Shown piece by piece: positions 7,024 through 63,850 of a stretch of DNA of 64,000 nt. The stretch lies in the NCBI RefSeq assembly GCF_042688385.1, contig NZ_JBHUPY010000007.1, forward strand, positions 258,110 through 322,109. The letters are read 5' to 3'. The notes below the pieces were generated by a model. The model did no database searches. It saw nothing but the letters and a program-made list of their open reading frames with translations, and was not told the DNA's origin. The DNA is from Herpetosiphon sp. NSE202 (lineage in GTDB: Bacteria; Chloroflexota; Chloroflexia; Chloroflexales; Herpetosiphonaceae). A program made the translations under genes and the position numbers. Within the stretch, counting starts at the first letter, position 1, and every line of letters starts with the position of its first letter.

Positions 7024-7375
7024 GCGATCAGGAATAAGGGGTCAGGGATCAGGCTTAAAAAACGCGAACTCTGGCCCCTCGCCCCTGAATTCCGCCCCCT
7101 AGCTCTGAGTTAATGATCTACGCAGGACACGAAGGCTTGAAACCACGAAGCGCGCGAAGAACGCGAAGCATTATTTTTTCGCCACAGATGAGCACAGATT
7201 GGCTTGATTATCGTTCCCAATAGCCAATAGCCAATAGCCCTGACTCCTCGCTTTTGACTTCTGATTTTTGACTTCTGATTTTTGCCTTTTGCCTTTTACT
7301 TTCACAGCTTCTATGTTCTATGTTCTTTGCTCTATGTTCTCCTTCATCCCTCATCCTTAACGACAGCGACTTAAG
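7024..7375. repeat. Mosaic intergenic repeat cluster B (gggtcagggatcagg, ccacgaag/cgcgaag words, atagccaatagcc x3, ttttgacttctga x2, ttctatgttc x3, catccctcatcc)
   Basis: Same word families as cluster A, in the opposite orientation. Confidence 0.8.
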
Positions 7376-15059: not shown

Positions 15060-15445
15060 CGCACTGCATTATATTATATCACGTTAATTTAGGGGTCAGG
15101 GATGAGGGGTCAGGCATCAGAGCAGTTACAGAAACCGCGAAGGACACGAAGATTGGAAACCACGAAGGACGCGAAGAGCGCGAAGATTAAGTTTTTAGCC
15201 ACAGATTCTTGTTCCCATAGCCTATAGCCTATAGCCTGATTCCCTCACCCCCAGCCCCCTCTCCCACTAGACGCGGGCGAGGGGTGTTTGTTTCGTGGTT
15301 CTAGTCTCAATCGTGGCGAAACTATCTTCATCCCTCATCCTTCATCCCTCATCCTTCATCCCTCATCCTTCATCCTTCATCCTTCATCCCTCATCCTTCA
15401 TCCCTCATCCTTCATCCCTCATCCTTCATCCTTCATCCCTCGCTA
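15060..15445. repeat. Mosaic intergenic repeat cluster C, including a solo MITE arm (15240-15285) and a 113-bp tandem 8-mer array catcc(c/t)t(c/t) (15328-15440)
   Basis: Words present: gggtcaggg, cgaaggacacgaag, atagcctatagcctatagcc and ccctcacccccagccccctctcccactagacgcgggcgagggg, followed by about 14 tandem copies of tcatccct/tcatcctt. Confidence 0.8.
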
Positions 15446-16523: not shown

Positions 16524-18102
16524 AGGCAGCTTTGCGTTTGAATTTACGTTGCAGGGCTTCGCTGAAAAATTGCAGTGCATCGAGTTTGAGCCACCACAAT
16601 AAGCCCAAATAGATTAAGCCACTGCCGCCACCCGCCACAATCAGCACCAACAGCGCATTCAATTTGCTGGGCGTGGTTGGCAACAAGTGTAACAACCCCC
16701 AACATGTTGCGGCCATGACCAAGGCAGCCATGGCTATTTTGGCGACAGCCAGAAGCATGGCTTGGCCATCAAAAACTCGTAAGCGCCGATGGGCCACGAC
16801 GGCCATCACCAAGGCGTGGATCGTTAATTGAGCCACATTACCAGCAATCAGGCCATACATGCCCCAATGGCGATAGCTCAAACCAGCCACCAAAAAGTAG
16901 CTGGCAATCGCTGGAGCTTGTACCAAATTGGGCAACAAGGTATTTTTGCGCGCATAAAAAGCGAAAATTAATGGCTGATCGATCGCCGCCGCCAGCATGC
17001 TTGGCAAGTAGGCCAGCAATACCAGCGCTGTAACCCGAGTATTTTCTGGGCTAAACTTGCCACCTTCAAACAAAATCCGCAGCACAGATTCGCCCAGCAA
17101 GCCAAAAATCACTAACATTGGCACAATCAGCAGCAACACCACTTTCAGCCCAATGCCTAAGATGCGGCGAAAACCTGCTTCATCGCCGTCGCTGTTGAGC
17201 CGCGCTAGGGTTGGCAAAATCGCAATTGAGATTGCTGCGGAAACTAAGCCCAAGGCAAATTGAATAAAGGTTGTGGCATTGCGCATATACGATGCAGATA
17301 GATCATCAATGCTGCCCGCCAACTGGCGATCGATCAGCGTGCCAACAAACGAGAAGCTAATGCCTAAGGCAACTGGGGCATACAGTAAGCCAATGCGGCG
17401 CACGCCTGGGTGACGTAAACGCAGCATCGGGCGCAAGCGGGCAGCACGCAAAGCTGGCAATTGTAAGCCAACTTGAGCCAAGGCTCCAGCCACCATCGCC
17501 CAACCCAACACCCGCGCATCCTGCGGCCAAAACCAAATCAGCACAATCAAGGCCAAATTAAACACGGTCGAGGTAAAGGCAGGCAACGAAAAACGCCGTT
17601 GGGCTTGCAATAAACCAGTTAGCACCCCCGACAAGCACATAAAAACCACTGCGATAACCATGGAATGCAACATCGACACGCCAAGGCTGAGCATGGTTGG
17701 GCTAGCAACAATTTTAGAAGCCAGTACCTGATTAATCGGCTCAGCAAAGAGCCAAACCAGCCCGCCCAAAACACCCAAAACAAGGCTGAGCATGGTCAAA
17801 ATTGTGTTGATAATTTGCCACAAATCGCCATCATCCTGCTGATCGATGTAATCGCTGAGCACCGGAACGAGGGCCGCGCTGACCAAGCCACCAACCAAAA
17901 AATCGTAGAGCTGGGTGGGCACGGCGCTGAGCAACGAATAGAGGCTAGTTTCTGCGCCAACCCCAAAATTATGATTAATAACTTTATCGCGGACGAGGCC
18001 AAGGATGCGGCTCGCAAAATTGCCAACCATTAATAACAAAGCGGCTAGCGCAATACTGCGTCCAGCCGTTGCTTGGGCTTTGGTTTCGAGTTTGGTGTTC
18101 AT
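16522..18102 (-). CDS. murJ: Lipid II flippase MurJ/MviN
   Basis: 526 aa with about 14 TM segments and a MurJ-like architecture (..FGVGAETSLYSLLSAVPTQLYDFLVGG..). Confidence 0.85.
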   Translation of the reverse strand: MNTKLETKAQATAGRSIALAALLLMVGNFASRILGLVRDKVINHNFGVGAETSLYSLLSAVPTQLYDFLVGGLVSAALVPVLSDYIDQQDDGDLWQIINTILTMLSLVLGVLGGLVWLFAEPINQVLASKIVASPTMLSLGVSMLHSMVIAVVFMCLSGVLTGLLQAQRRFSLPAFTSTVFNLALIVLIWFWPQDARVLGWAMVAGALAQVGLQLPALRAARLRPMLRLRHPGVRRIGLLYAPVALGISFSFVGTLIDRQLAGSIDDLSASYMRNATTFIQFALGLVSAAISIAILPTLARLNSDGDEAGFRRILGIGLKVVLLLIVPMLVIFGLLGESVLRILFEGGKFSPENTRVTALVLLAYLPSMLAAAIDQPLIFAFYARKNTLLPNLVQAPAIASYFLVAGLSYRHWGMYGLIAGNVAQLTIHALVMAVVAHRRLRVFDGQAMLLAVAKIAMAALVMAATCWGLLHLLPTTPSKLNALLVLIVAGGGSGLIYLGLLWWLKLDALQFFSEALQRKFKRKAA

Positions 18103-18815
18103 GCAAAAAGTGTCGTTTCTGGCTGATCGTTCAATCCGAACGAAGGATAGACGCGATGTAAATAGGCGGTATTAAACCAATCATGGTTGTCGAGAAATTG
18201 TTGCCAATCGTGGCGCTGCGTGGCATGGGCATCTAAAGCTGCGCGCTTGGTTTCGGCAAACTCACTAACATCAATAATCGTGGTTGCTGGCAGCGGGTCA
18301 GGGAAATCGCCGCTACTCGCAGCGTTGATCACGCGATCGCTGCCTGGCGCAACGCTCTGATAATACAAGCGTGGCTGTTCGCTACTTGGATTCAAGGCCA
18401 TATATTGGGCAAAAGCTTGGGTTGTGGCCATGCTAATTGCAATATGGTCGGGGTGGCCATAAATTCCATCGGGGCCAAAGGTCAAGACAATTTCTGGCTG
18501 CTCTGCATTCAACACTTCGACAATTTTATCGCGCAATTCGCTGGCATTTGCCAGTGCCAAGCCACCATCGGGATAATCCCAGACGATGCTGCGATCGACT
18601 CCGATTGCTTGACATGCTTGATGCAGCTCCTCTAGGCGCACCGAACCCAAGTGTTCAGGATCAATTTCCAGCTCAGGGCTTACATCGCCGCGTTCGCCAT
18701 GAGTTGCAGTGATAATCACAACCCGATAGCCAGCAGCACGGGCTTGGGCGAGCACGCCAACAGGGCCAAAAGCTTCATCATCGGGGTGCGCCCAAACAGA
18801 AAGAATGGTTGGCAT
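18099..18815 (-). CDS. PIG-L/LmbE family N-acetylglucosaminyl deacetylase
   Basis: MPTILSVWAHPDDEAFG.. is the AHPDDE zinc-binding signature. ..THGERGD.. The start overlaps the murJ stop by 4 nt. Confidence 0.8.
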   Translation of the reverse strand: MPTILSVWAHPDDEAFGPVGVLAQARAAGYRVVIITATHGERGDVSPELEIDPEHLGSVRLEELHQACQAIGVDRSIVWDYPDGGLALANASELRDKIVEVLNAEQPEIVLTFGPDGIYGHPDHIAISMATTQAFAQYMALNPSSEQPRLYYQSVAPGSDRVINAASSGDFPDPLPATTIIDVSEFAETKRAALDAHATQRHDWQQFLDNHDWFNTAYLHRVYPSFGLNDQPETTLFA

Positions 18816-18833
18816 AGTTTCGATAGTCCTCGA

Positions 18834-19508
18834 CTAAGCAGGCTTTAGCAGGTTTAAATCAAAGACACGGATAAAAATCCGTATAATGCGTTGTTGCACA
18901 TCGCTCAAAGCTGGCGCGACAGGCAACAGATCGGCCAACGAGGTTACGCCATAATCATGAATGCCGCAGGGCACAATCGCTGCAAAATCATCCAAATTGG
19001 TCGTAACATTCAGGGCAAAGCCATGCGAGGTAACGCCACGGGTATTCGAGCGCACGCCAATCGCAGCAATTTTGCACTCGCCAACCCAAACCCCAGTATA
19101 GCCAGGAAAGCGCCGCGCACTCAAACCATATTCAGCCAGCAACTCGATAATCACTTCTTCGAGCATGCGCAGGTATTGGTGTAAATCGCGGCCATGATCG
19201 CGAATTTGCAAAATTGGGTAGCCCACCAACTGGCCTGGGCCATGATAGGTAATATCGCCACCACGATCAACCTCGATCAGGGCTGCACCGCGTTGTTGCA
19301 AGCTTTCGGGGCTGACCAACAAGTGTTCGTGGCCGCCAGAACGCCCAATCGTGTAGGTTGCTGGGTGTTCCAACAACACCAAGGTATCGGGAATGGTTTC
19401 GGCGCTGCGTTGACTAACCAAGTGGCGTTGCAATTCCCAAGCAGCTTGATAATCGAGCATGCCGAGAATTTGCACATCCAATTGGCGTTGGGCTTGTTGA
19501 ATCGTCAT
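18834..19508 (-). CDS. lipB: Lipoyl(octanoyl) transferase LipB
   Basis: ..LLEHPATYTIGRSG.., ..GGDITYHGPGQLVGYPIL.., ..KIAAIGVRSNTRGVTSHGFALNV.. Confidence 0.85.
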   Translation of the reverse strand: MTIQQAQRQLDVQILGMLDYQAAWELQRHLVSQRSAETIPDTLVLLEHPATYTIGRSGGHEHLLVSPESLQQRGAALIEVDRGGDITYHGPGQLVGYPILQIRDHGRDLHQYLRMLEEVIIELLAEYGLSARRFPGYTGVWVGECKIAAIGVRSNTRGVTSHGFALNVTTNLDDFAAIVPCGIHDYGVTSLADLLPVAPALSDVQQRIIRIFIRVFDLNLLKPA

Positions 19509-19939
19509 AAAGGCATCAAACTAATCATATCGCCGCCGAATGGTGATGGTTGGCTCAGCCGAGTGCCATAGGTTGCTGGCTCGCTCGCCGCCCAATCTGC
19601 ATAATCGGCACTATATTGGCCATTAAAGTAGACATGCACCACTTGATTGTGGGTCACGCGGCTCATCGCATCCCACACTTCGTTATCGTCGTGGGAATAA
19701 GCCACCAGCATCGCGCGCTCAGGTGCAAATTCATCTTCCTCGGGCGGAATCACCAAGCCGAGCCATTGATTTGGATAGCGGGCTTCGATGATTTCGATGG
19801 CTTCGGTATGGCCGCGAGTTTCCATCGCGGTATATGGGCAACCACAATTGCAACTCACGCCACATTCGGCGGTGCCACATTTGCCGGTTGAAACGCGTCC
19901 GCCGTGATCGGCAGTGGTTAATTGGATTAAAACAGGCAT
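19505..19939 (-). CDS. Hypothetical Cys-rich protein (CGTAECGVSCNCGCP motif), co-oriented upstream of lipB
   Basis: 144-aa ORF overlapping the lipB start by 4 nt. The Cys cluster is near the N-terminus. No family recognised. Confidence 0.45.
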   Translation of the reverse strand: MPVLIQLTTADHGGRVSTGKCGTAECGVSCNCGCPYTAMETRGHTEAIEIIEARYPNQWLGLVIPPEEDEFAPERAMLVAYSHDDNEVWDAMSRVTHNQVVHVYFNGQYSADYADWAASEPATYGTRLSQPSPFGGDMISLMPL

Positions 19940-20128
19940 AGGTTAAACTCACAAGTTGAGAACAAACGCTCTGCGAGCATGATAGCACAATCAAGTTATT
20001 TGCACTCAAATCGCTAGCAATTGAGGAATTTCTGCTATACTAGCACGCTAGTTAGCCGCACATTTTGCGCAAACCTAGTTGCTTATGCTCCGTCAATGCC
20101 AAGCAATTCAGCGGAGGTACGATAAACA

Positions 20129-20704
20129 ATGAAGCGTGTTGATCCAACTCAAGCAGCGTTAGCACCGGAAGCTGCCGAAGCTCTGCTGCGCAGCTTGCAA
20201 GCTCGCTTTGAGCAATTTATGCAGCGCCATCCAACGCTGGAATGGGCCAAAATTGAAGCAAAACTCGTGGCCCAGCCGGCCAAACTGTGGTCGCTCAACG
20301 AAATGGAGCGCACTGGTGGCGAGCCAGATGTGGTTGGCTACGATCCAGCAAGCGATCAATATCTGTTTTATGATTGTTCGATTGAAACTCCCAAAGGCCG
20401 CCGCAGCATCTGTTACGATCGTGCTGCGCTGAATGCCCGCAAAGAGCATAAACCAGCAACCAGTGCGCAGGATATGGCAGCGGAAATGGGGATTGAATTG
20501 CTGAGCGAAGCAGATTATTGGGCTTTGCAACAGCTTGGAGCATTCGATACTAAAACCTCAAGCTGGATTCAAACTCCGCCCGCGATTCGCGATCATGGCG
20601 GCGCGCTCTTCGGTGATTATCGCTATAAACATGTTTTTATCTATCATAGTGGTGCCGATTCGTATTATGCTGTACGCGGCTTTCGGGGCTTGATCCGCGT
20701 CTAA
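20129..20704 (+). CDS. Hypothetical protein (DUF4256-like, tentative)
   Basis: 191-aa ORF with good coding bias. The family assignment is from memory only. Confidence 0.5.
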   Translation: MKRVDPTQAALAPEAAEALLRSLQARFEQFMQRHPTLEWAKIEAKLVAQPAKLWSLNEMERTGGEPDVVGYDPASDQYLFYDCSIETPKGRRSICYDRAALNARKEHKPATSAQDMAAEMGIELLSEADYWALQQLGAFDTKTSSWIQTPPAIRDHGGALFGDYRYKHVFIYHSGADSYYAVRGFRGLIRV

Positions 20705-20762
20705 AGTGGATTTAGCGCTCGCGTCGCGGCACTCTATGCTACGCCAATAGAAAGGTCGATCA

Positions 20763-21878
20763 ATGGTTGGACGTGAACTTTATCGGTTGTTGCAATGCCC
20801 TACCTGTAACTCACGGGATTTGGCGGTGTATGCTGAGCACGTGCTCTGCGCTGGCTGCCGCAACGAATATCCCATTCACAAGGGCTACATTGATTTAATG
20901 CCGCGCCAAACTGAATTTGATTATATTTCGAAATATGTTTCCGAAGAAGAAAGCATGGGCGAGGAGCTTGATTATCGTGAGATGGCTCCCCCGTTGCTGG
21001 CAGCAGGCGTGCGCCATCGCCAAATTCGGCGCATGTTGGCGCTCAAGCCAACCGATATTGTGTTTGATAATGCCTGTGGTAATGGGCGCTTTGGCTTGTG
21101 GAACGCCGATGCAGTTGGCTTGATTGTTGGCAGCGACCCAGCGGTGCTCTTCGCCGACCAAGCCTTGGCCGAGATGGAATTGGCGCAAGCTGATTCGCGG
21201 CGCTTGCCATTTGTCGATGGTGCGTTCGATAAATCGCTCTCGGTCGATGTGCTCGAACACTTCCCACGCGATGTAATTCACGATTATTTGGTCGAAACTG
21301 CACGCGTGTTGCGGGTTGGCGGGCGGGTGGCAATCTTCTCGAATACCCGCGAAATGTCACCAATTCAGCCGATCATCAATATTTCCAAACGCTTGGGCAA
21401 ATTCTTCGTCAAGCAAGGCGTTTACGATTTCGAGCGCGAAGCACGGCGTAAATCCGACCACATCAAAGACCTTAAAACCTGGGATGATGTTGAAGCAGCC
21501 TTGGTTGAAGCAGGTTTGAAGCCGGTTAAAGTTGTATTTTGGAATAGCGTTTTCACCTCGTTTGTTGAGCATGTGCTGATGAAACTGGGCGAATCGTTGA
21601 TTGCCAAGCGCAAAGCTGCCAAATCAGCCAGTGCTCCGGTGCTAACCGACGAGGCCGTTAATGCCTCGGCTGGCGCACAACGCGAAATCGTGGCCCGGCG
21701 CGCGATGCGTCGCCACCTGACCAAAAGCTCGCCAATTTACTGGGCGCTATATCTGGTCACACTGCTGATGGAGCTTGATTTGTGGTTGTTTGGCTGGATG
21801 CGCACCGGCCCCTATTTTGTGTTGGCCGAGAAGGTCGAAGGCCGCTATGTGCCAGCGCCCTTGCCAACCGAAGAATAA
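20763..21878 (+). CDS. Class I SAM-dependent methyltransferase with an N-terminal Trm112-like zinc ribbon and a C-terminal TM helix
   Basis: CPTCNSRDL..CAGCRNEYPIHKGYIDLMP is the zinc ribbon. ..FDNACGNGRFGL.. is the SAM motif I. A hydrophobic C-terminus reads ..IYWALYLVTLLMELDLWLFGW.. Confidence 0.7.
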   Translation: MVGRELYRLLQCPTCNSRDLAVYAEHVLCAGCRNEYPIHKGYIDLMPRQTEFDYISKYVSEEESMGEELDYREMAPPLLAAGVRHRQIRRMLALKPTDIVFDNACGNGRFGLWNADAVGLIVGSDPAVLFADQALAEMELAQADSRRLPFVDGAFDKSLSVDVLEHFPRDVIHDYLVETARVLRVGGRVAIFSNTREMSPIQPIINISKRLGKFFVKQGVYDFEREARRKSDHIKDLKTWDDVEAALVEAGLKPVKVVFWNSVFTSFVEHVLMKLGESLIAKRKAAKSASAPVLTDEAVNASAGAQREIVARRAMRRHLTKSSPIYWALYLVTLLMELDLWLFGWMRTGPYFVLAEKVEGRYVPAPLPTEE

Positions 21879-21883
21879 AAAAT

Positions 21884-21919
21884 CAGCCCTGTTGCTCAAG
21901 CGAGCAGCAGGGCTTTTTT
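21884..21919 (+). terminator. Rho-independent terminator of the methyltransferase gene
   Basis: cagccctgttgctc aagc gagcagcagggct followed by tttttt. Confidence 0.7.
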
Positions 21920-21925
21920 GATGAC

Positions 21926-22064
21926 ATTCCCTCACCCCAACCCCTCTCCCGTGGCACAGGCGAGGGGCTTTAAGTCCTTGGTTCTTGCCCAATTCGTCCA
22001 TGAACACTGGCGGCTCCCCCTCGCCCGCGTCGAGTGGGAGAGGAGGTTGGGGGGTGAGGGAATT
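21926..22064. mobile_element. MITE-like palindromic element (about 139 bp; terminal inverted repeats attccctcaccccaacccctctccc .. gggagaggaggttggggggtgagggaat)
   Basis: A perfect or near-perfect long inverted repeat. Each arm contains its own hairpin (cccctc..gagggg). Further copies occur at 43741-43846 and 59726-59856, with partial copies at 15240-15285 and 29829-29954. Confidence 0.6.
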
Positions 22065-22069
22065 GCTCC

Positions 22070-23101
22070 TTAACATTCTTCATCACAACATTCGTCGTTT
22101 TCGTGGCGCACGATCATGCTAATTGGAAGGATTGTGTTTTCGCTGCTTGGCGTTTTGCCTTCGATCATTTCGATCAACACATTGGCTGCGGTTGTGCCAA
22201 GGTCGTACATTGGCTGATGCAGCGAGGTCATGCTGGGGTTGAGGCTGGCAGCAGTTGGTACATCATCAAAACACACCACGGTTATATCATCGGGAATGCG
22301 CAGCCCAGCATCGTGCAAGGTTCGCAGCACGCCAGTTGCCATCACCGCGCTACTCACAAATAGCGCAGTTGGCCGTGGTTGCAAGGCCAAAAGTTGCTGA
22401 ATTGCGCTTTGGCCACCTTGTTCGCTCTCAGCTCCAGTCACAATCAAGGCTGGGTGAATTGGCAAGCCTGCCTCACGATAGGCTTGTTGATAGCCCTCAA
22501 TTTGATCATGGCTGGCTGGGGCATGCAACGAGCCAATAATCATGCCAACCGATTGATGGCCAAGCATCAGCAGATGCCGCACCGCTTGATAGCTACCAGC
22601 AAAATGGTCAATATCGACGCTCACGATATGGTGCAAAAGCGGGTGTTTGCCGACCAACACCATTGGCACGCGATCAGCAATCAGTTGCGGTAACAAGGGA
22701 TCATTGATCGTATTCGGAATCACGATCCGGCCATCGACGCTGCGACCATGCAACAATTTGGTCGCCGGATCATCAGCCCGATTAGCGCTATCGAGCGAAA
22801 CCATCAATACGTAGCCCTTGGCATTACAGGCTTCGGTCATACCTTGCAGCAAATTCGAGAAGGTCGGATTGCGAAAGATCGTCGCGGTGGTTTCGGAGAT
22901 AAACACCGCAATAACTTTGGGTCGTTGCCCAGCCAAGGTGCGGGCCGCTGCCTGCGGCGTATAATGATGCTCTTGCATCACCGCCAAGACCCGTTCGCGC
23001 ACTTCCGCTCGCACATGCGGCTGATTGTTCAGCACCCGCGAAACAGTCGCAATCGAAACTTGGGCAATTTCGGCAATTTGTTCAATCGTAATCGATGGCA
23101 T
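22070..23101 (-). CDS. LacI family transcriptional regulator
   Basis: MPSITIEQIAEIAQVSIATVSRVLNN.. is the LacI HTH, followed by a periplasmic-binding-protein-like sugar-binding domain. The ATG is at 23101 after GAAGG. The ORF track extends to 23245. Confidence 0.85.
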   Translation of the reverse strand: MPSITIEQIAEIAQVSIATVSRVLNNQPHVRAEVRERVLAVMQEHHYTPQAAARTLAGQRPKVIAVFISETTATIFRNPTFSNLLQGMTEACNAKGYVLMVSLDSANRADDPATKLLHGRSVDGRIVIPNTINDPLLPQLIADRVPMVLVGKHPLLHHIVSVDIDHFAGSYQAVRHLLMLGHQSVGMIIGSLHAPASHDQIEGYQQAYREAGLPIHPALIVTGAESEQGGQSAIQQLLALQPRPTALFVSSAVMATGVLRTLHDAGLRIPDDITVVCFDDVPTAASLNPSMTSLHQPMYDLGTTAANVLIEMIEGKTPSSENTILPISMIVRHENDECCDEEC

Positions 23102-23679
23102 AATCCGACCTTCTAAACAACTTCTATTGCTAGGCTGACAAGCGCACAAACTTACTGGCGCAATCCTTGCTGCGCTGCCCAACGAACAAACAGAGCTGTT
23201 GAGCGAATTCACAAACAGCGCTAGGCTTGCTAAAATTGCGATCAACAGCCGCTCAATGAGAGCGGTTCCGAGCTGCGGATAGCGTTGGCAGCATTATTTT
23301 TTGACAGGCGTAAAGCATATTTTGCCATAGCCGAGCCTAATATTGATCAGACTTTCGCCTGAAAAATGAATTATCACTTAAATAAAACACTCCCAGCGCA
23401 GCAGCCCTCATCGGGAGAATCAAGGCCAATCCGCTGGGAGTGCAAGGAGAGTATGCTTCGAACACGCGAGGCTCGCGAATCTCGGTTTTTGGAATGTGTT
23501 TGCCGCACATGCTCCAAAGACCATTATCAGACGAAACGCTGAAGCAACGCTTGTGTTTCTGAAACGTTACAGAAGTATAGCACAGCAATGCGGCACATGC
23601 AATAGACTTATTACAATGATTTGAATAACGCGGCACAACTGCTGCTATAGCCAAATCGGTAAAAATAGCTGGGGACTCT

Positions 23680-24696
23680 ATGAAGTATCGTGAATATCGC
23701 ATTCCTGCGCCAAACGTGCGCTCGTTATGCTGGAACAATAATAGTTTGATTGATTGGGTTGCTGGCGGAACGCGCTATCAGCTTGATGGCAAGATTAAGC
23801 GTTCGGCCACGGTCTATCCGTATCCTTTTGATGCGGCGGTGCAATCGGCCTCAGGCGAGGTGGTCGTCATCTATCAACGCTTGGGAACGAAGGGCTTGGT
23901 GCTTAAAAATGGCAAGATTGTGCGCGAAATTAACCGCAGTTATTACTACGCCGATAGCTATGAATACCCGATAGCCGTGTTGCAGCATGCCGATTTGAAT
24001 GATGTGCTACTACACTGTCCCGATAAACACAACCAACTTGATCTTGAGGATGTAGCAACCGGACGGCGTTTGACTGAAGGCTGGAAGCGCAAACCAGTCG
24101 ATATTTTCCATTCGCGCTTGAGCGTCAGCCCCAAAGGAACCTGGGCGGTAAGTGCTGGTTGGCAATGGCAGCCAGCCCATACCGTGGCAATCTACAAAGT
24201 CGATGAGCTATGGTCAGAGCCGCAAATTCTTGATACTGAAGGCTTTTGCCCGCCAATCAAAGTTGATATTAGCTCGGTCAGCTTTTTGGATGAACAAACC
24301 CTGCTGATCATCACCGATGAATTTGCCAACCTCAATGCAAATTTGGTTGATACGCTGGTGCAACGGCGCGGAGCACATAGCATTGGCTACTACGATTTGG
24401 AAAATCGCCAATTTCGAGCAACTGTTCAGGCACAAGAAATTGTGGGCACAGCCATGGCATTAAGCGAGCGCTACGTGGTCGGCTTCTTTGATCATCCCAA
24501 AGTATTCGATTGCACAACTGGCAAAGTAGTGCAGCGTTGGCCAGAGTTAGCCACAGGCCGCCAAACCCACAGCATGATTGGCAGGCTTGACCAAGCACTG
24601 CCGCCAACCGCCTTTGATTCAGCAAACCAGCGTTTTGCGGTCGCCGATGAAAAAGGCATTACCGTGATTGAATTGGATTTGCAGGATATTAATTAA
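23680..24696 (+). CDS. Hypothetical protein (possible beta-propeller fold)
   Basis: 338-aa ORF. No motif recognised. Confidence 0.45.
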   Translation: MKYREYRIPAPNVRSLCWNNNSLIDWVAGGTRYQLDGKIKRSATVYPYPFDAAVQSASGEVVVIYQRLGTKGLVLKNGKIVREINRSYYYADSYEYPIAVLQHADLNDVLLHCPDKHNQLDLEDVATGRRLTEGWKRKPVDIFHSRLSVSPKGTWAVSAGWQWQPAHTVAIYKVDELWSEPQILDTEGFCPPIKVDISSVSFLDEQTLLIITDEFANLNANLVDTLVQRRGAHSIGYYDLENRQFRATVQAQEIVGTAMALSERYVVGFFDHPKVFDCTTGKVVQRWPELATGRQTHSMIGRLDQALPPTAFDSANQRFAVADEKGITVIELDLQDIN

Positions 24697-25493
24697 TGCA
24701 TGATTTGCTTGAATATCAAACCCAGCGCGATCGTTTAATTGCTCAGTTAAGCACAACGCTCGCAGCCGATCAGCGCTTTGTGGCTGGTTGGCTGGTTGGC
24801 AGTTTTGGTCGCAATGCTGCTGATGCAGTCAGCGATCTTGATCTGATGGTGATAGTAGCCGAGGCGGCAAGCGCCCAATTATGAGCCAAACCAGCGATTA
24901 ATCGCGCCAGCACAACGCCCGAGCGGGCAGCGTTATTTACAACATTTGGCCCAATTGCCGCCTTGTACGAGGCCCATCAGAATGCACCAGCAGGCGGAAC
25001 CCAAAGCTTTGTCTGCTACCAAGGCATTGGCTTAATAGTTGATTGGACATTAGTTCCAGCTGACAAGGCGCAACGCCCAGTCGATGCGATGATCTTGTTT
25101 GAGCACGTGCCAATTGCCGTGGCAGCTGCCTCGCAGGCTGAGCCAAACCCAGCTGAATTAATCAAAGAACGGGTAGCATTTTTTTGGATGATGAGCACAG
25201 TCACGATTAAATATCTGATTCGCAAGGATCATGTGTTTGTGACGACATGGCTGGAGGAATTGCAACGGATTGTGCTTGAAGTCGAACGCTTAATCGAACA
25301 GCGACCATGGAGCTATCAGCATGGCTCGCGCAGCCAGTTTACGGCCACAACCCTCGCCCAAAAACAGGCAATTCAAAGCTTGATTGCGGCAATGCTGCAA
25401 TTAACCTCACCGCTTGCTGAGCTTAGGCCTGCGCCTTTACCAGAGCTTGAGCGTTTGTTAGCATTGGTTGATACAGAGGATCTTATGCTCTAG
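24696..25493 (+). pseudogene. Nucleotidyltransferase (ANT/Lnu-like NTase fold) interrupted by an in-frame TGA at 24882-24884
   Basis: The N-terminus reads ..WLVGSFGRNAADAVSDLDLMVIV.. (GS..D.D NTase motif). The reading frame is open in the same frame on both sides of the TGA (..AEAASAQL*AKPAINRASTT..MYEAHQ..). Confidence 0.55.
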
Positions 25494-29575: not shown

Positions 29576-29828
29576 GACCGTGTGCTCCTTTCAAGCAATG
29601 GTGAATTTCAAACCTCGGCCACTATAAAGCTAGATAGTCCGAAACAACGTCCTTGCTCACGTCCCAAAGGTCAATAAAAGATTAATAAACGATGAAGTAG
29701 CGATGAATATTGCTGAGAATTCCAGCTAACAAACTTAATTTTAGATATAACGCCGCATAAACGTGGGCAAACGAGCTACATAAAAAGCCCTTAGTTCGTA
29801 ACCATTCTTGGGACATCCACAGCATGAA

Positions 29829-29954
29829 AAAGCCCCTCGCACGCTAGGCATGCGAGGGGCTTTAACACCTTGATTGTACCGCAATCTGTTGGTACATAAC
29901 GGTCGGCTCCCCCTCGCCCGCGTCTAGTGGGAGAGGGGGTTGGGGGGTGAGGGG
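29829..29954. repeat. 5'-diverged MITE-like element copy whose inner hairpin doubles as the rho-independent terminator of the FTR1 operon (- strand)
   Basis: agcccctcgca cgctaggca tgcgaggggc ttt aacacc .. cggctccccctcgcccgcgtctagtgggagagggggttggggggtgagggg. On the - strand the hairpin is followed by UUUUUC. Confidence 0.55.
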
Positions 29955-43559: not shown

Positions 43560-43975
43560 TTTTTTCGAATGCAAGAAGCAATAGCCGATCTAGGCTAGAT
43601 TATCGTTTTGATCCACGAAGCGCACGAAGAGCACGAAGGACGAAAACCACGAAGAACGCGAAGAGCACGAATTAATTATTCCAATAGCCAATAGCTGTAC
43701 TGGTTCATTAGGTTGACAACCAAGTGCATGCCCTCACCTCCAGCCCTTCTCCCACTGAACGCGGGCGAGGGGAGCACTGATTCAGCGGTTCCCCCTCGCC
43801 CGTTCGACGGACGAGGGGGCTAGGGGGTGAGGGGGAATCGTCGTTAACGCAATGAACCATTACACATGGCCAATAGCCAATAGCCCTGAGTTCTCTGCGC
43901 CTCTGCGTTAAATTTTTGACTTTTGACTTTTGACTTTTGATTTTAGATCCCAATCAAAAAAAACCCTCTGGAATG
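43560..43975. repeat. Mosaic intergenic repeat cluster G including a MITE-like palindrome (43741-43846), at the left flank of the low-GC island
   Basis: ccacgaag x5, atagccaatagc x2, ccctcacctccagcccttctcccactgaacgcgggcgagggg .. ccccctcgcccgttcgacggacgagggggctagggggtgaggggg, ctctgcgcctctgcgttaaa, ttttgac x4. Confidence 0.8.
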
Positions 43976-44021
43976 TATCTAACTCTAGTAATGCGTATTT
44001 ATGCTAGAGTTGGAGGCTTTT

Positions 44022-44894
44022 ATGCCAGTTGTTGGTACCGCCCCAGTAAAGCCCTGTCCGCAATGTCAATTTCGTAATAACACTCATTCAACATTTTGTC
44101 AGAATTGTGGCCAAGTATTAGCCAAGCCGCAAGCAGTTCCATCAACCCAGCCTGTGGCCAAGCCAATTGCGCAGTCACCTGTTAATCAATCTTCGACCCA
44201 GCCTGTGGCCAAGCCAATTGCGCGTCCACCTGTTAATCAACTTTTAGGTGCACCAGCAACAAGACCACTTACACCGCCAGCACCCTATCAAACCAGCCCA
44301 ATTGCAAGCTCAACTCAATCAACTCATCAAAAACTCTTGTTTCAATTGCAAATGTTTGCTTACGGTTTAATTGGGCTTGGCTCAATTATGCTGATTTGTT
44401 TTATTTTTGGGCCATTTGTACAAAACAATATTGCTGGTGGCTTTGGCGATACCCTAGGTGCCAGTATGGGAAGCAGTTTTAGCGCACTCCATATGTTGGG
44501 AATGCTTTTAGGTGTTCTATTTGATGATCGCTTTTCAAATGGTAGCATTTTTATAGTTTTGGGGATTATTGCGATTCTTCTATTGCCAATTTTTGCTGTT
44601 ATCGTAATTATGACGGGATCAAAAATGTATAAAGGCTTTACGTTGAATCATCCACCCCAACCAATCAAGCTCCTCCAAATTGGCAGTGGAATTATGCTTG
44701 GCTTTTGGGGCTTTCTTTACTCAGCATTTAATTTCCGATTAAGCGTTAATGGAAACCTTGCAAAAATTTTTGGAATCGAAGGCGACATTGGTTTGGGATG
44801 GGGATTTACATTCAGCGTGATTTCAATCTTAGTGCTATTTATTAGCTGTATTTGGTATAAAAATACAGTTTTAAAACTTTCAGTTACCCCATAA
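44022..44894 (+). CDS. Zinc-ribbon membrane protein: N-terminal CxxC..CxxC ribbon, Pro/Gln-rich region with a 17-aa tandem duplication, and 4 TM segments. First gene of the low-GC island.
   Basis: MPVVGTAPVKPCPQCQFRNNTHSTFCQNCGQV.. STQPVAKPIA(Q/R)(S/P)PVNQ appears twice, encoded by a 51-nt tandem duplication at 44145-44246. Hydrophobic helices follow. The ATG is at 44022 after GGAGG. Confidence 0.6.
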   Translation: MPVVGTAPVKPCPQCQFRNNTHSTFCQNCGQVLAKPQAVPSTQPVAKPIAQSPVNQSSTQPVAKPIARPPVNQLLGAPATRPLTPPAPYQTSPIASSTQSTHQKLLFQLQMFAYGLIGLGSIMLICFIFGPFVQNNIAGGFGDTLGASMGSSFSALHMLGMLLGVLFDDRFSNGSIFIVLGIIAILLLPIFAVIVIMTGSKMYKGFTLNHPPQPIKLLQIGSGIMLGFWGFLYSAFNFRLSVNGNLAKIFGIEGDIGLGWGFTFSVISILVLFISCIWYKNTVLKLSVTP

Positions 44895-44904
44895 AGGAGC
44901 AATT

Positions 44905-45573
44905 ATGGAATATGGATTAGAAAGCCCAACTAATTACGAACAGAAATGTTTGTGTGTTTTGGTCGTCGATACATCAGGTTCGATGCAGGGTAAACCAATT
45001 GACGAATTAAACCAAGGTCTCCAATTATTTCATCAAGATATTAGTAATAATTTTTCGACTGCTCAACGCTTAGAAATTTGCTTAATTGAATTTAATAGTC
45101 AAGTTGATTGTATTGTTGAGCCAAGTTTAATTGATCATTTTGATATGCCAATTTTAGCGGTAGCCGGAACAACAAAACTCGTTGATGGAGTACGTTTGGC
45201 TATTCATAAAGTCCAAGAACGCAAAGAATGGTATCGCTCAACAGGTCAGCCATATTATCGGCCATGGATTATTTTGATGACTGATGGCGCGCCTGATAAA
45301 GACCAAGATATTCCAGGTTTAGCCCAAGAGCTTCAATATGGGGTCGCCAATAAACAATTTACGTTCTTCCCAATCGGGGTTCAAGGAGCAGATCTTAACA
45401 TGCTTCGGCGTATTAGCACGCCAGATCGCCCACCAATGATGTTGCAAGGCTTACGGTTTGAAGCATTTTTTGACTGGTTAAGCGCAAGTTTAGCTATGGT
45501 CGCAAGCTCAACTGATGGCCAAGTAATCAATTTGCCGCCAACGAGTGGTTGGGGAATTCTTCCAGTGTCCTAA
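44905..45573 (+). CDS. vWA domain protein, TerY-like
   Basis: ..CLCVLVVDTSGSMQGKPIDEL.. is the MIDAS DxSxS. ..ILMTDGAPD.. At about 220 aa it is the size and architecture of TerY. Confidence 0.75.
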   Translation: MEYGLESPTNYEQKCLCVLVVDTSGSMQGKPIDELNQGLQLFHQDISNNFSTAQRLEICLIEFNSQVDCIVEPSLIDHFDMPILAVAGTTKLVDGVRLAIHKVQERKEWYRSTGQPYYRPWIILMTDGAPDKDQDIPGLAQELQYGVANKQFTFFPIGVQGADLNMLRRISTPDRPPMMLQGLRFEAFFDWLSASLAMVASSTDGQVINLPPTSGWGILPVS

Positions 45574-45630
45574 AATTTGTTGGGGTTGGTTGGTTTGGCT
45601 CCAGCTGACCCCTTTTGCAAGGAAGAGACG

Positions 45631-47031
45631 ATGAAACAGTATCAACGATCACTCATTTTGGTGTTATCTGCGCTGCTTTTGCTCAGCAGTCTATTAATTG
45701 TACTGCTCTTTATCCGATTAAACACCACCAATCCGCAGGCAACTCCAATAATTCGATCAACAACTATACCACCAACGTTAACCAGTTCAGGCTCAATTAC
45801 AACAACCCAATCGCTACCTGTTGCGGCACCAATTGAATCAATCATTACCACTATTGCAACTGTTGCGCCAAAACCTGATAATGCCAAACTGCAACCAAAC
45901 GCTCCTAAACCCGCTACAACTCAAGCCCCCACTAGTTTTGGAGCAACATTGCTCAAAAGCCTGCTTGGATTGGGTGTGCTTGCGATTGGCGGATACTTAT
46001 TATGGGTGCGTTTGACTGGTTCGCCTCAGTTCGAACCCCAACGGCGTTTGATGCCGAAACCGCTGCTTAAGCAAAATCCAGCGGAGATTGCCTTGCCACC
46101 AGAGAGCAATCCAACTCCACCTAGGTCGCGACCAGTCGCTGAACCGAGCGCGTCTAGCAATTTGAAACCAGCAGTTGACCCGAGTTTGCGGAATGCCAAC
46201 TATCAATTTCATGTATTTTGTGAATCGATCATTGGTAAGAGCCATAGTCAACATGGTTTATTATGTCAAGATTATTCACAACATCAAATGTTGGGTGAAG
46301 GTTGGGGTGTTGCAGTGATAGCTGATGGTTTGGGTAGCCGCAAATTATCACATCTTGGCTCTGAATTTGTGGTTAAAGCAGCATGCACACAATTATTAGA
46401 GCTGGTGAAAAAGCATTCTTGGTATGAAACCAAGCAATTACCGAATCTGCAGCAATGGCAGAGCTATGTAATTTATATTTTCCAAGATATTTATGCAAAA
46501 TTACAAAAGAAGGCCCAAGCAGAAAAGCAATCAGTTCATGAATATGCTTCTACATTAATTAGTGTCATTTATAGCCCAATTGGCATTTTGGTAGCACATA
46601 TTGGCGATGGTCGGGCTGGCTATAGCGATCGTCATGGCCAATGGCATTCAATGATTACGCCACATAAAGGTGAAGAAGCCAACGAGGTTATGCCATTTAC
46701 TGCCGATCAGGTTTGGAAAAATCCATCTGAATTAATCGAATGTCGAGTCATTAACGACCACATTAATGGATTTGTATTAATTTCTGATGGCTGTGAAAAA
46801 CATACATTTCAATGTAGCCAATTTGATCAAGCAACTCAGCACTGGCACGATCCAAATCGACCACATCAACAATTTTTTGATCGTTTGCAGCAGCTATTTC
46901 GTGAAAAAAAACAAAAAGGCCAAAGTCTCCAAGATTTACAGCCTACGTTTAAAGATATTCTAGAACGAGGTACTACCGGTTTTGCCAATGAGCCAGATGA
47001 TAAAACCATGATTCTTGGTTTGTGGATCTAA
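45631..47031 (+). CDS. Transmembrane PP2C-family Ser/Thr phosphatase (two TM helices flanking a Thr/Pro-rich extracytoplasmic segment; cytoplasmic PP2C domain)
   Basis: TM1 is ..LILVLSALLLLSSLLIVLLFI.. TM2 is ..GLGVLAIGGYLLWV.. PP2C motifs are ..GVAVIADGLGS.., ..VAHIGDGRAGY.. and ..VLISDGCEK.. The ATG is at 45631 after AGGAAGAG. Confidence 0.7.
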   Translation: MKQYQRSLILVLSALLLLSSLLIVLLFIRLNTTNPQATPIIRSTTIPPTLTSSGSITTTQSLPVAAPIESIITTIATVAPKPDNAKLQPNAPKPATTQAPTSFGATLLKSLLGLGVLAIGGYLLWVRLTGSPQFEPQRRLMPKPLLKQNPAEIALPPESNPTPPRSRPVAEPSASSNLKPAVDPSLRNANYQFHVFCESIIGKSHSQHGLLCQDYSQHQMLGEGWGVAVIADGLGSRKLSHLGSEFVVKAACTQLLELVKKHSWYETKQLPNLQQWQSYVIYIFQDIYAKLQKKAQAEKQSVHEYASTLISVIYSPIGILVAHIGDGRAGYSDRHGQWHSMITPHKGEEANEVMPFTADQVWKNPSELIECRVINDHINGFVLISDGCEKHTFQCSQFDQATQHWHDPNRPHQQFFDRLQQLFREKKQKGQSLQDLQPTFKDILERGTTGFANEPDDKTMILGLWI

Positions 47032-47053
47032 GCATACGAGAAGGATATCAATA

Positions 47054-48271
47054 ATGAGTCTTATCTATCAAACCAAACAGCATACCCACGTTCAGCTTGA
47101 TGAATCCAAGCCGCTAGGAAAAGGTGGCGAGGGTTGTGTTTATTCTATCATTAACACTGCTACTTATCCTAATCATTGTGCGAAAATTTTCTATCCTAAC
47201 CGATTAACTCCTGAATTAGAGCAAAAGATTAATTTTATGGTTGATAATCCACCTGATACTCTTACCAGTACTAATTATCGGATTGCATGGCCAATTGCTG
47301 CATTGTATCAAAAACAAAAATTTTGTGGTTTCATTATGCCAAAAGCTTTTGATCAGAGCATTGGGCTTGAACGATTAACACAACCTCATATTCATATCAA
47401 AAATATTGATCAGTCATGGATTAAGTATCAACGATCTGATAAACAAGGGGTTATTAATTGCTTTAAAGTTTGTGTTAATATTGCTTTCACGGTTAATCTT
47501 ATTCATCAAATGCAAAAATATATTTTTGTCGATTTAAAACCTCAGAATATATTAGTCACATTAAATGGATTTATTTCGATTACCGATATTGATTCAATGC
47601 AGGTTTATGATGATAAGAAGAATCTCTATTATAAATCGGTCGTTTCAACAGCTGAATATTCGCCTCCAGAGTATCGTAACTATCTTAAAAGTGGAAGCAT
47701 TATTGCAAAAGAGTGGGATAATTTCTCATTAGCAGTTATTTTCTATCAATTGATTACAGGAATTCATCCTTTTGCTGCAACCTTTGGTGATAAATTTCAT
47801 GATTCAACAACGATTGATGACCATATTAGCCGTAGTTTATTTGTATTTGGTAATCACAAGCATGCAATTGTTCAGTTGCCAAAGTTACATAAATATTACG
47901 AAAGAATGCCAGCTGATATTCAACAATTATTCCTGCGTGCGTTCGATAAACCAGTTGCTCAGCGACCTAATGCAGAGGAATGGGGAAAAAATCTGTTTGA
48001 TTTAGTTTCGCAGAAACAACATTTAATTGCACATAATCCAGATATTAGTCCGGCTTCACAGCCCAAAAAACCAGTAGGAGGATTAAATCAAGCAAAAAAA
48101 ATCAACTCAGCATTAAAACCAGTACAACAGCAAGCGACTCAGCCACGCAATAATTCGGCTCCGATTCAAATATCACAGCCAATTAATGCTCAGCGTAAAA
48201 GTTATGCTTGGATCGGCTGGTTGATTGTTGTAATTGCGATTATTGGAGTTATTTTGCTGGCGCAAGCCTAG
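47054..48271 (+). CDS. Eukaryotic-like Ser/Thr protein kinase with a C-terminal TM anchor
   Basis: ..LGKGGEGCVYSI.. is the Gly loop. ..HCAKIF.. carries the catalytic Lys. ..IFVDLKPQNILV.. is the catalytic loop. ..ITDIDSMQ.. is DFG-like. ..TAEYSPPEY.. is APE-like. C-terminal ..WIGWLIVVIAIIGVILLA.. It overlaps the PP2C gene end by 17 nt. Confidence 0.75.
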   Translation: MSLIYQTKQHTHVQLDESKPLGKGGEGCVYSIINTATYPNHCAKIFYPNRLTPELEQKINFMVDNPPDTLTSTNYRIAWPIAALYQKQKFCGFIMPKAFDQSIGLERLTQPHIHIKNIDQSWIKYQRSDKQGVINCFKVCVNIAFTVNLIHQMQKYIFVDLKPQNILVTLNGFISITDIDSMQVYDDKKNLYYKSVVSTAEYSPPEYRNYLKSGSIIAKEWDNFSLAVIFYQLITGIHPFAATFGDKFHDSTTIDDHISRSLFVFGNHKHAIVQLPKLHKYYERMPADIQQLFLRAFDKPVAQRPNAEEWGKNLFDLVSQKQHLIAHNPDISPASQPKKPVGGLNQAKKINSALKPVQQQATQPRNNSAPIQISQPINAQRKSYAWIGWLIVVIAIIGVILLAQA

Positions 48272-59599: not shown

Positions 59600-60000
59600 A
59601 AAGAACATAGAGCATAGAGCGAAAGGATGAAGGATGAGGGATGAATTATGAAGTTTAACGCAGAGGCGCAGAGAAGTTGTGGCTCTAGGCTATGTGTATT
59701 GGTACATGAGGTTAACCACCGCCTGATCCCCTCACCCCAACCCCTCGCCCGTCCGACGGGCGAGGGGCTTTAACGCCGTGGTTCTTGCGCAATACGTCAG
59801 TAAAAACCAGTGCTCCCCTCGCCCGCGTTCAGTGGGAGAGGGGCTGGGGTGAGGGCATGGATGTCATTGCCAATCCAATGAACCATTACATAGAGCCTAT
59901 AGCCTCACTTCGCGTCCTTCGCGATCTTCGCGGTTTCAGAATCGCCCATCCTAGAGCCTAGAGCCTAGAGCCTCACTTCGTGTCCTTCGTGGATCATATT
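59600..60000. repeat. Mosaic intergenic repeat cluster H including a MITE-like palindrome (59726-59856)
   Basis: gaacatagagcatagagc, ggatgaaggatgagggatgaa, ttaacgcagaggcgcagag, the palindrome cccctcaccccaacccctcgcccgtccgacgggcgagggg .. cccctcgcccgcgttcagtgggagaggggctggggtgaggg, aatgaaccattaca, tagagcc x3, cttcgcg/cttcgtg words. Confidence 0.8.
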
Positions 60001-63589: not shown

Positions 63590-63850
63590 ATCCACGAAGG
63601 ATACGAACCTGAGAAACCGCGAAGAGCGCGAAGGTCGCGAAATTTTCTCATTCCCTCGTCCGTACATTGCATCCTTCATTCCTCATCCTTCATATTTTTG
63701 AAGCTCTGCGCCTCTGCATTAAATGCGTACTCTATTTTGCTTTTTGACTTTTGATTTCTGCCTTTTCACTTTTAAAAAGGGATCAGGCTTGATGGAATAC
63801 ATCCTCCAAAGCCTAATCCCTTTTGCTTTTTGATTTCTGACTTTTGACCT
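63590..63850. repeat. Mosaic intergenic repeat cluster I
   Basis: ccacgaaggatacgaa, cgcgaag x3, catccttcattcctcatccttcat, ctctgcgcctctgcattaaa, ttttgacttttgatttctgcc, gggatcagg, ttttgatttctgacttttgacc. Confidence 0.8.

Follow-up and report, generated by a model that had tools for sequence, protein, structure and literature searches.

A BoxC/TM-type doublet repeat of Herpetosiphon and its probable carriage by a MITE in part of its copies

Background

Elements of the BoxC/PIT/TM type have been known since the 1990s, BoxC and PIT reportedly from the work of Bachellier et al. (1990s) and Hoyne et al. (2000). They are strikingly well conserved among distantly related bacteria, their number changes from one close relative to the next, and they mark loci that are unstable. 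To our knowledge, neither their function nor the way in which they spread has been established and, in E. coli, where BoxC is present, we know of no RAYT dedicated to it. REPINs and BIMEs are doublets of REP sequences that are mobilised by RAYT transposases, and mosaic clusters of REPs are found in enterobacteria.

The arm motif discussed below was first described in E. coli as BoxC, was rediscovered as PIT and was later presented as the TM-ECO triplex motif (Holder et al. 2015, PMC4666352). It forms an intrastrand purine-motif triplex in vitro, a stable form of which is unsupported by in vivo footprinting; E. coli PIT elements display neither promoter nor terminator activity, and RNA does not adopt the purine-motif triplex (PMC4666352). 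In the same work, no link between TM-ECO and mobile elements was found, and the E. coli TM loci were reported as unusually rearranged between strains and hypervariable (PMC4666352). IS481 elements, to which part of the present data also relate, generate 6-bp duplications at NCTAGN, CCTAAC being recorded as well, and the ends of one member of the family begin with TGTG (PMC3053399, PMC2516522).

The repeats analysed here are best explained, with a probability of about 0.7, as a BoxC/TM doublet module of Herpetosiphon that is carried in some copies by a MITE, designated shell 1, that has later undergone decay and that does not serve as a general terminator.

Repeat copies in the 64-kb window

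All five loci of the original prediction were recovered at or near the positions that it gave, and an nhmmer profile derived from the three longest of them detected none further in the window, i.e. the whole 64-kb stretch of NSE202 DNA that was analysed. One protein encoded in the window shows 100% identity to a protein of Herpetosiphon sp. NSE202. After refinement of their boundaries they are as follows.

15240..15320, + strand: decayed copy, with left arm at 15242-15284 and a degenerate spacer remnant to ca. 15320
21926..22064, + strand: bare TM-doublet core, with left arm at 21929-21967, spacer at 21968-22016 and right arm at 22017-22060
29829..29954, + strand: 5'-truncated core, with a recognisable spacer and an intact right arm at 29909-29953
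43696..43864, - strand: putative shell-1 MITE of 169 bp, in the opposite orientation, with core at 43731-43833
59695..59890, + strand: putative shell-1 MITE of 196 bp, with ends TGTATTGGTACAT...ATGAACCATTACA
59726-59856: TM-doublet core inside the 59695..59890 shell, with arms at 59729-59767 and 59815-59855

Depending on the pattern used, 4-8 arms were observed in the window when 0-0.19 would occur by chance. A full copy begins with CCCTCACCCC, followed by 2-3 nt, a hairpin (CCCCTCKCCC-loop-GGGMGAGGGG) and the spacer, 3' of which are found a second hairpin (CCCCTCGCCC-loop-GGGAGAGGGG), 2-4 nt and GGGGTGAGGG. The predicted folds are much stabler than those of shuffled sequence (z = -4.8 to -8.2).

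The copy first placed at 43741-43846 does exist, but it is better delimited at 43731-43833; its orientation is the opposite one and its spacer is shortened by ca. 30 nt. Both this core and that at 59726 had been regarded as complete elements; the cores themselves stand, but each is embedded in a longer element having separate outer inverted repeats. Two of the remaining copies are incomplete. At 29829, the left-arm hairpin is devoid of the outer CCCTCACCCC and an A-run occurs in its place, which on the minus strand results in a T-run 3' of the hairpin (29825-29866). At 15240, the right arm and the shell have been deleted.

The arms correspond to the BoxC/PIT/TM motif

By sequence, the ca. 42-nt arms can be identified as BoxC/PIT/TM, an intrastrand-triplex motif that was already known and has the form CCCTCKCCC-loop-GGGMGAGGG-linker-GGGTGAGGG. 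Their three blocks of 9 nt each (CCCTCGCCC, GGGAGAGGG and GGGTGAGGG) recur without any difference in E. coli TMECO entries (Table 1 in PMC4666352) and in L178:622-656, and the G.A mismatch that is conserved in the stem of the window arms corresponds to the "A mm" type, the commonest in E. coli. A representative window arm reads CCCCTCGCCC-GCGTTCAGT-GGGAGAGGGG-CT-GGGGTGAGGG. When the third block is read antiparallel, all 10 positions are occupied by G:G, A:A or T:A combinations, as in a class II purine motif. With up to two substitutions allowed, the arm pattern is found in 8 arms of the window and in 159 arms of the 502 kb of family loci.

The strict published TMECO pattern (CCCTCNCCC N3-6 GGGNGAGGG N3 GGGNGAGGG) has no match in the window because both stems and loops are longer in Herpetosiphon, while a relaxed TM pattern with loops of N3-12 and N2-8 gives 4 exact matches in the window for 0 expected. 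This relaxed pattern also matches both arms of a doublet located in the lldD-trmL intergenic region of E. coli, in which the arms have the same head-to-head arrangement, with a spacer of 59 nt and an overall length of 129 bp.

The Herpetosiphon repeats thus share with the published BoxC/PIT/TM elements the same three blocks (CCCTCKCCC, GGGMGAGGG and GGGTGAGGG) in the same order, together with the frequent G.A mismatch. In both cases the elements are strictly intergenic, follow no strand rule and can occur as inverted doublets; their copy number varies among close relatives and, as in E. coli, the Herpetosiphon copies may be associated with variable loci. Differences concern the stems, with 10-12 nt in Herpetosiphon versus 9, and loop 1, with 6-10 nt versus 3-6, the linker having 2-4 nt. 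Unlike BoxC/PIT/TM elsewhere, the Herpetosiphon copies are nearly all head-to-head doublets around a family-specific, half-conserved spacer, and at least a third of them are located inside a MITE. The host also differs, since Herpetosiphon belongs to the Chloroflexota and neither Herpetosiphon nor Chloroflexi appears in PMC4666352 or in two of its supplement files.

DNA of other bacteria matches the family only in the arms. In plasmids as well, arms alone are matched, the hosts being Azospirillum, Cupriavidus, Pseudanabaena and Vitreoscilla. Viral contigs number more than 120 among the matches listed for the outer arm pattern. For 129 of the 138 arm matches in viral contigs, again among the matches listed, no exact partner motif occurs within 400 nt, which indicates that the motifs in viral contigs are mostly single units.

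A repeat family of Herpetosiphon

Many more copies were found in relatives of NSE202, and these confirm that the family is dispersed, non-coding and palindromic. A pattern including part of the spacer (GCGAGGGGCTTTAANNCCKTGRTT) was scanned against species-representative genomes and identified 57 loci, all of them in H. llansteffanensis, H. giganteus or one Chloroflexia MAG; the scan missed NSE202 itself, so that its zero matches in H. aurantiacus, H. geysericola and H. gulosus do not equate with absence of the family. In the 502 kb composed of the family loci and the window, nhmmer detected 109 non-overlapping matches, 57 of which are full length (101-137 nt; all except two, which are shorter, measure 126-137 nt).

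As anticipated in the original prediction, the arms are conserved between copies, being nearly invariant among the 50 that were aligned. Mean pairwise identity is 87% in the left arm, 85% in the right arm, 80% in the 5' part of the spacer and 57% in its 3' part; the 5' end of the spacer carries an invariant box (CTTTAA..CCGTGGTTCT) while the 3' half is variable. On the basis of these alignments and searches, the core can be defined as a ca. 130-bp interspersed non-coding repeat that occurs, in the data searched, only in Herpetosiphon and in one related Chloroflexia MAG. Literature searches combining Herpetosiphon with MITE, REP or repeats returned nothing specific.

The arm ends are not transposon termini

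It had been proposed that the arms, taken as ca. 45 bp, are the termini of a classical MITE, mobilised by a transposase whose gene is bordered by the same repeats, and that copies have been exapted as terminators. The arms do form long and well conserved inverted repeats, the copies of the family are dispersed, lie between genes and have no coding capacity, and the core has well-defined ends (ATC/CCCTCACCC...GGGTGAGGG/MAT, where slashes mark the ends and where GGGTGAGGG is followed by (A/C)A(T/C)). These ends, however, are not flanked by target-site duplications: direct repeats of 3 bp or more were not found above expectation, at any offset, around the 56 full copies or around the 17 bare ones, and the best signal in the flanks is a 2-nt AT on each side, AT being its own reverse complement. 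Neither the bare cores nor those located in shell 2 (see below) show a target duplication. Furthermore, no inverted pair of arms encloses an ORF in the Herpetosiphon loci, and elsewhere the motif is mostly solo, as indicated above for the viral contigs. A pair of arms 1.7 kb apart in a viral contig was considered as a candidate IS and rejected; the gene that it encloses follows a terminase-like ORF and is, by eye, portal-like and not transposase-like. With the features of terminators missing as well (see below), a MITE ending at the arms is an improbable explanation. The core is a module rather than a transposon with ends of its own.

For the spread of the bare cores, the main alternative is a REPIN-like mechanism, by which a RAYT-like or another HUH/Y1 enzyme, of a kind that leaves no target duplication, would copy the doublet as a unit while it is folded in single-stranded DNA; the MITE shells would simply have captured it. 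Like REPINs and BIMEs, the core is an intergenic, inverted doublet of imperfect palindromes with a short spacer and no target duplication, and it takes part in modular mosaics with other short repeats and in tandem clusters. Several data would fit such a process: head-to-head arm pairs exceed tail-to-tail pairs by 53 : 1 in the Herpetosiphon loci, the stem mismatch is conserved and not compensated, the core is found in at least three unrelated flanking settings and, at one orthologous site, in opposite orientations in two species, and the nearest paralogue belongs to the same genome for 36 of 50 copies. By contrast with REPINs, no GTAG or CGTC tag is conserved at the foot of the palindromes in the 50-copy alignment, the arm has an extra third block that is not part of the hairpin, and its sequence is common to several phyla whereas REPs are species-specific. 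In addition, cores have for the most part kept their positions while their flanks diverged by 5-14%, and no link of E. coli BoxC to mobile elements was found (PMC4666352). Taken together, we regard a REPIN-like spread as unlikely.

A MITE that carries the core

The 56 full copies fall into three settings, with 24 in shell 1, 15 in a second palindromic shell (shell 2, inverted repeat CTTACAAGGGTAGG) and 17 bare, proportions that are biased since most family loci were chosen for containing the core. Several of the 17 bare copies retain TTAAG from shell 2. Shell 1 is composed of TGTAYTGGTWCAT..GTTAACCAC, the core and CATG..TTGCCAATCCAATGAACCARTACA, and its outer ends (TGTAYTGGTWCAT...ATGWACCARTACA) are located 31-35 bp outside the arms; the 59726 copy likewise resembles other loci beyond the limits of its arms. 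The 19 paired shells measure 169-343 bp, typically 190-200 (10 of 18 in the 190-199 bp bin), and a core is enclosed in 17 of 18 paired shell-1 ends.

Target-site duplications, which are absent at the arm ends, were found at the ends of shell 1, where they are of 6 bp. The flanking 6-mers are identical in 4 of 19 shells (TCTATG, TATAGC, AATAGC and TATAGG) and agree at 5 or more of the 6 positions in 9 of 19, the mean match being 4.2/6 versus ca. 1/6 in shifted controls if the 7-nt periodicity of the arrays is disregarded. Flanks consisting of heptamer arrays inflate apparent duplications; the controls were a permutation of partners, in which 9 near-matches were reached in 0 of 2000 cases, and three elements that are not array-flanked on both sides (L142, L175 and L145). 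The duplications in non-array flanks are CCTAAA/CCTAAC, ATTAAG/CTTAAG and AGTTGC/AGCTGC, the latter flanking the one shell with a different interior. Finally, two H. llansteffanensis paralogues (L142 and L169) share ca. 97% identity along 200 bp, and no homology extends past the terminal bases.

The initial view of these repeats as MITEs consequently holds for the shell-1 copies, based on duplications, sharp boundaries and absence in relatives, but not for the arms as termini. Judging from these features, the copies at 43696-43864 and 59695-59890 are the cargo of a MITE of ca. 170-200 bp with its own ends, and shell 1 appears as the unit that demonstrably moves.

From the size of the duplications, their target and the first bases of shell 1, we infer an IS481-type partner, so that a DDE transposase of this type may mobilise shell 1 in trans. 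Shell 1 resembles IS481-type MITEs by its length of 170-200 bp, its non-coding nature and its imperfect terminal inverted repeats that start with TGTA; the duplications TCTATG, TATAGC, AATAGC, TATAGG, CCTAAa/c and aTTAAG resemble NCTAGN and CCTAAC, the paralogues have sharp boundaries, and close relatives lack the element at both window sites. It differs in that its interior is a BoxC-type doublet, versus a deleted transposase gene in IS481-derived MITEs, and in that its preferred targets are 7-nt tandem arrays, unlike those of IS481-family MITEs. In ca. 0.57 Mb of Herpetosiphon DNA, no paired shell-1 ends located 0.4-3.5 kb apart and having matching extended repeats, as expected of an autonomous IS, were found. 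A metagenome scan with the shell end gave 20 matches that look like chance, the best-looking of which (L193/L195) apparently runs into coding sequence.

History of the window copies at orthologous sites

The region surrounding the bare copy at 21926 (window positions 17567-25471) is 94% identical to a contig of H. giganteus, in which the core is 96.5% identical for 94% in the flanks (L174). The MAG, whose flanks are 86% identical, has a rearranged core (L187), and H. geysericola retains a stretch of 17 nt, CGTCTCTCACCCAATCC. Judging from these comparisons, the 21926 copy is old and vertically inherited, and the 17-nt remnant marks its deletion in H. geysericola. The same junction harbours two different AT-rich gene inserts in contigs of the H. 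aurantiacus type and an AT-rich cassette with an AAA-ATPase gene in H. llansteffanensis.

At the site corresponding to 15240, H. llansteffanensis possesses a full shell-1 element with duplication TCTATG (L185:4444-4637), which supports the original interpretation of the solo arm as a decay product. The same solo arm is present in H. geysericola and NSE202, and two copies are found in the MAG. At 29829, the whole stretch of 233 nt is replaced in H. geysericola (L186) by 71 unrelated nt.

The shell-1 element at 59726 is present in H. llansteffanensis (L189) with duplication TATAGC, while in NSE202 the left copy of the duplication and the left flank have been lost by an adjacent deletion. In H. 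giganteus (L188), the closest relative with 95.6% identity, there is no element and four in-phase heptamers are found instead; this empty site lies in repeat arrays with other indels, and loss or independent gain both fit the difference. The element at 43741 is part of a 4.6-kb NSE202-specific segment (43634-48268) that is absent from both H. giganteus (L188) and H. llansteffanensis (L189). Distant methyltransferase orthologues (L179 and L180) were also considered as empty sites but were rejected because synteny is broken. In another case, two direct copies flank ca. 870 bp that are absent from the MAG.

Overall, among the five window sites compared, each has a different structure in one or more relatives, owing to a deletion remnant, a cassette replacement, a solo arm or absence. 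In another explanation, the host would have selected the repeat as a DNA structure or protein site, formed by triplex or cruciform arms or by the CTTTAAnnCCGTGGTTCT box of the spacer, with a role in organising the genome, in pausing replication or in programmed recombination where cassettes join. Conservation of the arm sequence across phyla, pairs that are invariant rather than covarying, a nearly invariant spacer box, the three different cassettes found at the 21926 junction in relatives and the hypervariability of E. coli TM loci are all compatible with this explanation. However, copies have been lost without replacement in close relatives and are not placed preferentially with respect to genes, a stable triplex was not supported by in vivo footprinting in E. 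coli (PMC4666352), and the link with instability here concerns five sites without matched controls. We consider selection of this kind by the host as having little probability.

Gene context and transcription

All copies are intergenic, the few that seemed to occur inside ORFs being located in spurious ORFs that are made by tandem repeat clusters; such clusters explain spurious proline- and glycine-rich hypothetical ORFs in the annotation. The gene context could be classified for 85 copies, with 48 between tandem, 24 between convergent and 13 between divergent genes. The convergent share (24/85) represents a mild excess over the 19% of convergent intergenic regions in the same core-selected loci, and in tandem regions both orientations occur (31 vs 17).

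According to the initial description, the elements are inserted between a terminator and a convergent stop codon. This is the case at 21926, where the stop codon of a LacI-family gene (22070-22072) is found 5 nt after position 22064 and where a bidirectional terminator-like hairpin with a T-run (21885-21920) lies on the other side of the copy, but it is not general, since copies also occur in tandem and divergent regions. At the FTR1 site, the terminator-like hairpin that had been postulated does exist, but the genes are not convergent: FTR1 and then DoxX are both on the minus strand and thus in tandem. When read on the FTR1 strand, the 29829 copy gives AAAGCCCCTCGCATGCCTAGCGTGCGAGGGGCTTTTT, a hairpin followed by UUUUU. 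This hairpin and T-run downstream of FTR1, which would have been gained by chance, are plausibly one case of exaptation. Exaptation as terminators does not extend to the family: complete copies have no U-tract, their tails being CUUUAA or AGCACUGGUUUUU depending on the strand, and they were not called by the terminator scan.

These data also bear on a role at the RNA level, either as a 3' stem-loop involved in termination or mRNA stabilisation or as a small RNA. The very stable predicted folds, the location of the 21926 copy in the LacI 3' UTR, the hairpin and T-run on the FTR1 strand and the mild over-representation of convergent sites would agree with it. Yet the missing U-tracts, the 13 of 85 copies in divergent regions and the use of both orientations in tandem regions are difficult to reconcile with such a role. 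The covariation term given by RNAalifold is 0.01, the pairs being conserved in sequence without compensatory changes, and so provides no argument for a structural RNA; Rfam gave 0 matches in the window at the gathering score and, at E values up to 1, sub-threshold chance matches to eukaryotic families. Moreover, RNA forms no purine-motif triplexes, and neither terminator nor promoter activity was seen with PIT elements (PMC4666352). A function of the repeat at the RNA level is very improbable.

Proposed origin and significance

In the preferred explanation of a doublet module carried in part by a MITE, each arm is a hairpin in which a loop joins a C-rich to a G-rich stem, with a further G-rich block that mirrors the first, and two such arms are placed head-to-head around a spacer of ca. 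47 nt, the 5' half of which is conserved. This core exists bare, within shell 2 (CTTACAAGGGTAGG...) or within the shell-1 MITE of ca. 170-200 bp (TGTAYTGGTWCAT...ATGWACCARTACA). Shell 1 would move with 6-bp duplications into NCTAGN-like sites of heptamer arrays, presumably by means of an IS481-type DDE transposase provided in trans. Insertion would be followed by long vertical inheritance and by decay through deletions, with copies residing at intergenic junctions where gene cassettes differ among species. A tie between BoxC/TM and mobile DNA was not found reported in the literature searched; the motif is a known one, and what is new is its lineage-specific doublet and its carriage by a MITE.

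More speculatively, the BoxC/TM motif may be no passive structural curiosity but the part that confers function on a class of mobile or recombinogenic modules. In Herpetosiphon, the doublet might be copied in its own right by an as yet unrecognised single-strand-specific enzyme that reads the hairpin and the third block, or might be a cargo of MITEs that is selected for driving excision, inversion or cassette exchange. Although this proposal is rather unlikely, it would, if true, account for the motif being patchily distributed as well as for its link with hypervariable loci. Carriage by a MITE whose target duplications are clear offers a concrete and testable route for the multiplication of BoxC/TM, and the several sequenced Herpetosiphon species that differ at single sites would constitute a tractable system for studying a possible role of the motif in deletion, inversion and cassette turnover.

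Shell-1 elements and their cargo

A 4.6-kb segment of the window (43634-48268), which carries a shell-1 MITE together with four genes, three of them encoding a VWA domain protein, a PP2C phosphatase and a Ser/Thr kinase, is missing in H. giganteus (L188) and in H. llansteffanensis (L189). One shell-1 element (L145 1163-1386) has a different interior of 224 nt that is devoid of BoxC arms and is flanked by a duplication, AGTTGC/AGCTGC, matching at 5 of 6 positions. Shell 1 can thus move with cargo other than the core.

As target sites, the shell-1 MITE favours GCTATnG and CCTAGAG arrays. The intergenic regions of the window are mosaics of 7-nt tandem arrays, several of them repeating identical array types in identical order; CACGAAGnn arrays are likewise present. 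The heptamer arrays are similar to the STRR heptamers known from filamentous cyanobacteria.

Tandem arrays of 7 nt in the window
Positions: 783-825, 7217-7340, 15217-15237, 15326-15438, 43613-43671, 43914-43944, 59623-59653, 59950-59973, 63734-63773
Unit types: CCAATAG, CTTTTGA, TTCTATG, ATAGCCT, TTTTGAC, AAGGATG, CCTAGAG, AGAACAT
CTTCATC/CCTCATC: 16 units

A second palindromic shell

A different palindromic shell (shell 2), with the arrangement CTTACAAGGGTAGGT..TTAAG / core / ..AAAACCTACCCTTGAAAGG, encloses 15 of the 56 full copies of the core. For the case in L121, a possible direct repeat of 8 bp (TACCTCAG) was found. Where cores lie in tandem clusters, spurious ORFs longer than 100 aa arise.

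Examples of shell 2 in sequences of relatives
L121 3770-4010
L136 917-1130
L168 4240-4674
L148 1100-1494
L156 2679-3071

Rearrangements at core copies

At one orthologous site compared between H. llansteffanensis and H. giganteus, the core occurs in opposite orientations, loops included (L159 5038-5179 versus L162 7725-7864), reflecting either an inversion of the core via its arms or two independent insertions. In an H. giganteus copy (L167 6562-6700), the right-arm hairpin is flipped (CCCCTCTCCCACTGAACGTGGGCGAGGGGG) while the orientation of the outer third block is unchanged, and thus the palindromic hairpin of an arm can invert by itself. In H. llansteffanensis (L129 3618-4915), ca. 870 bp are bracketed by two direct repeats, each composed of the core and ca. 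80 nt of flank. A single copy is found in the related Chloroflexia MAG (L166 2380-2900), in which the ca. 870-bp segment is absent.

A cassette hot spot and a viral contig

A hot spot for cassettes lies at the point where the methyltransferase and LacI genes adjoin, the inserts of relatives occupying the exact position of the repeat in NSE202 and H. giganteus.

Cassette sites at the junction
Window 21879-22069: repeat
L181 4117-5989 and L182 4117-5194: two differing AT-rich inserts, H. aurantiacus-type contigs
L185 11117-13044: AAA_15/AAA_21 ATPase gene, H. llansteffanensis

Finally, two identical single TM units (BoxC/PIT/TM triplex motifs) lie in inverted orientation in a viral contig (L017 5100-5141 and 6867-6905). 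The gene between them, which comes after a terminase-like ORF, looks by eye like a phage portal gene. Since the units flank this portal-like gene, the TM motif occurs in phage intergenic regions as well.
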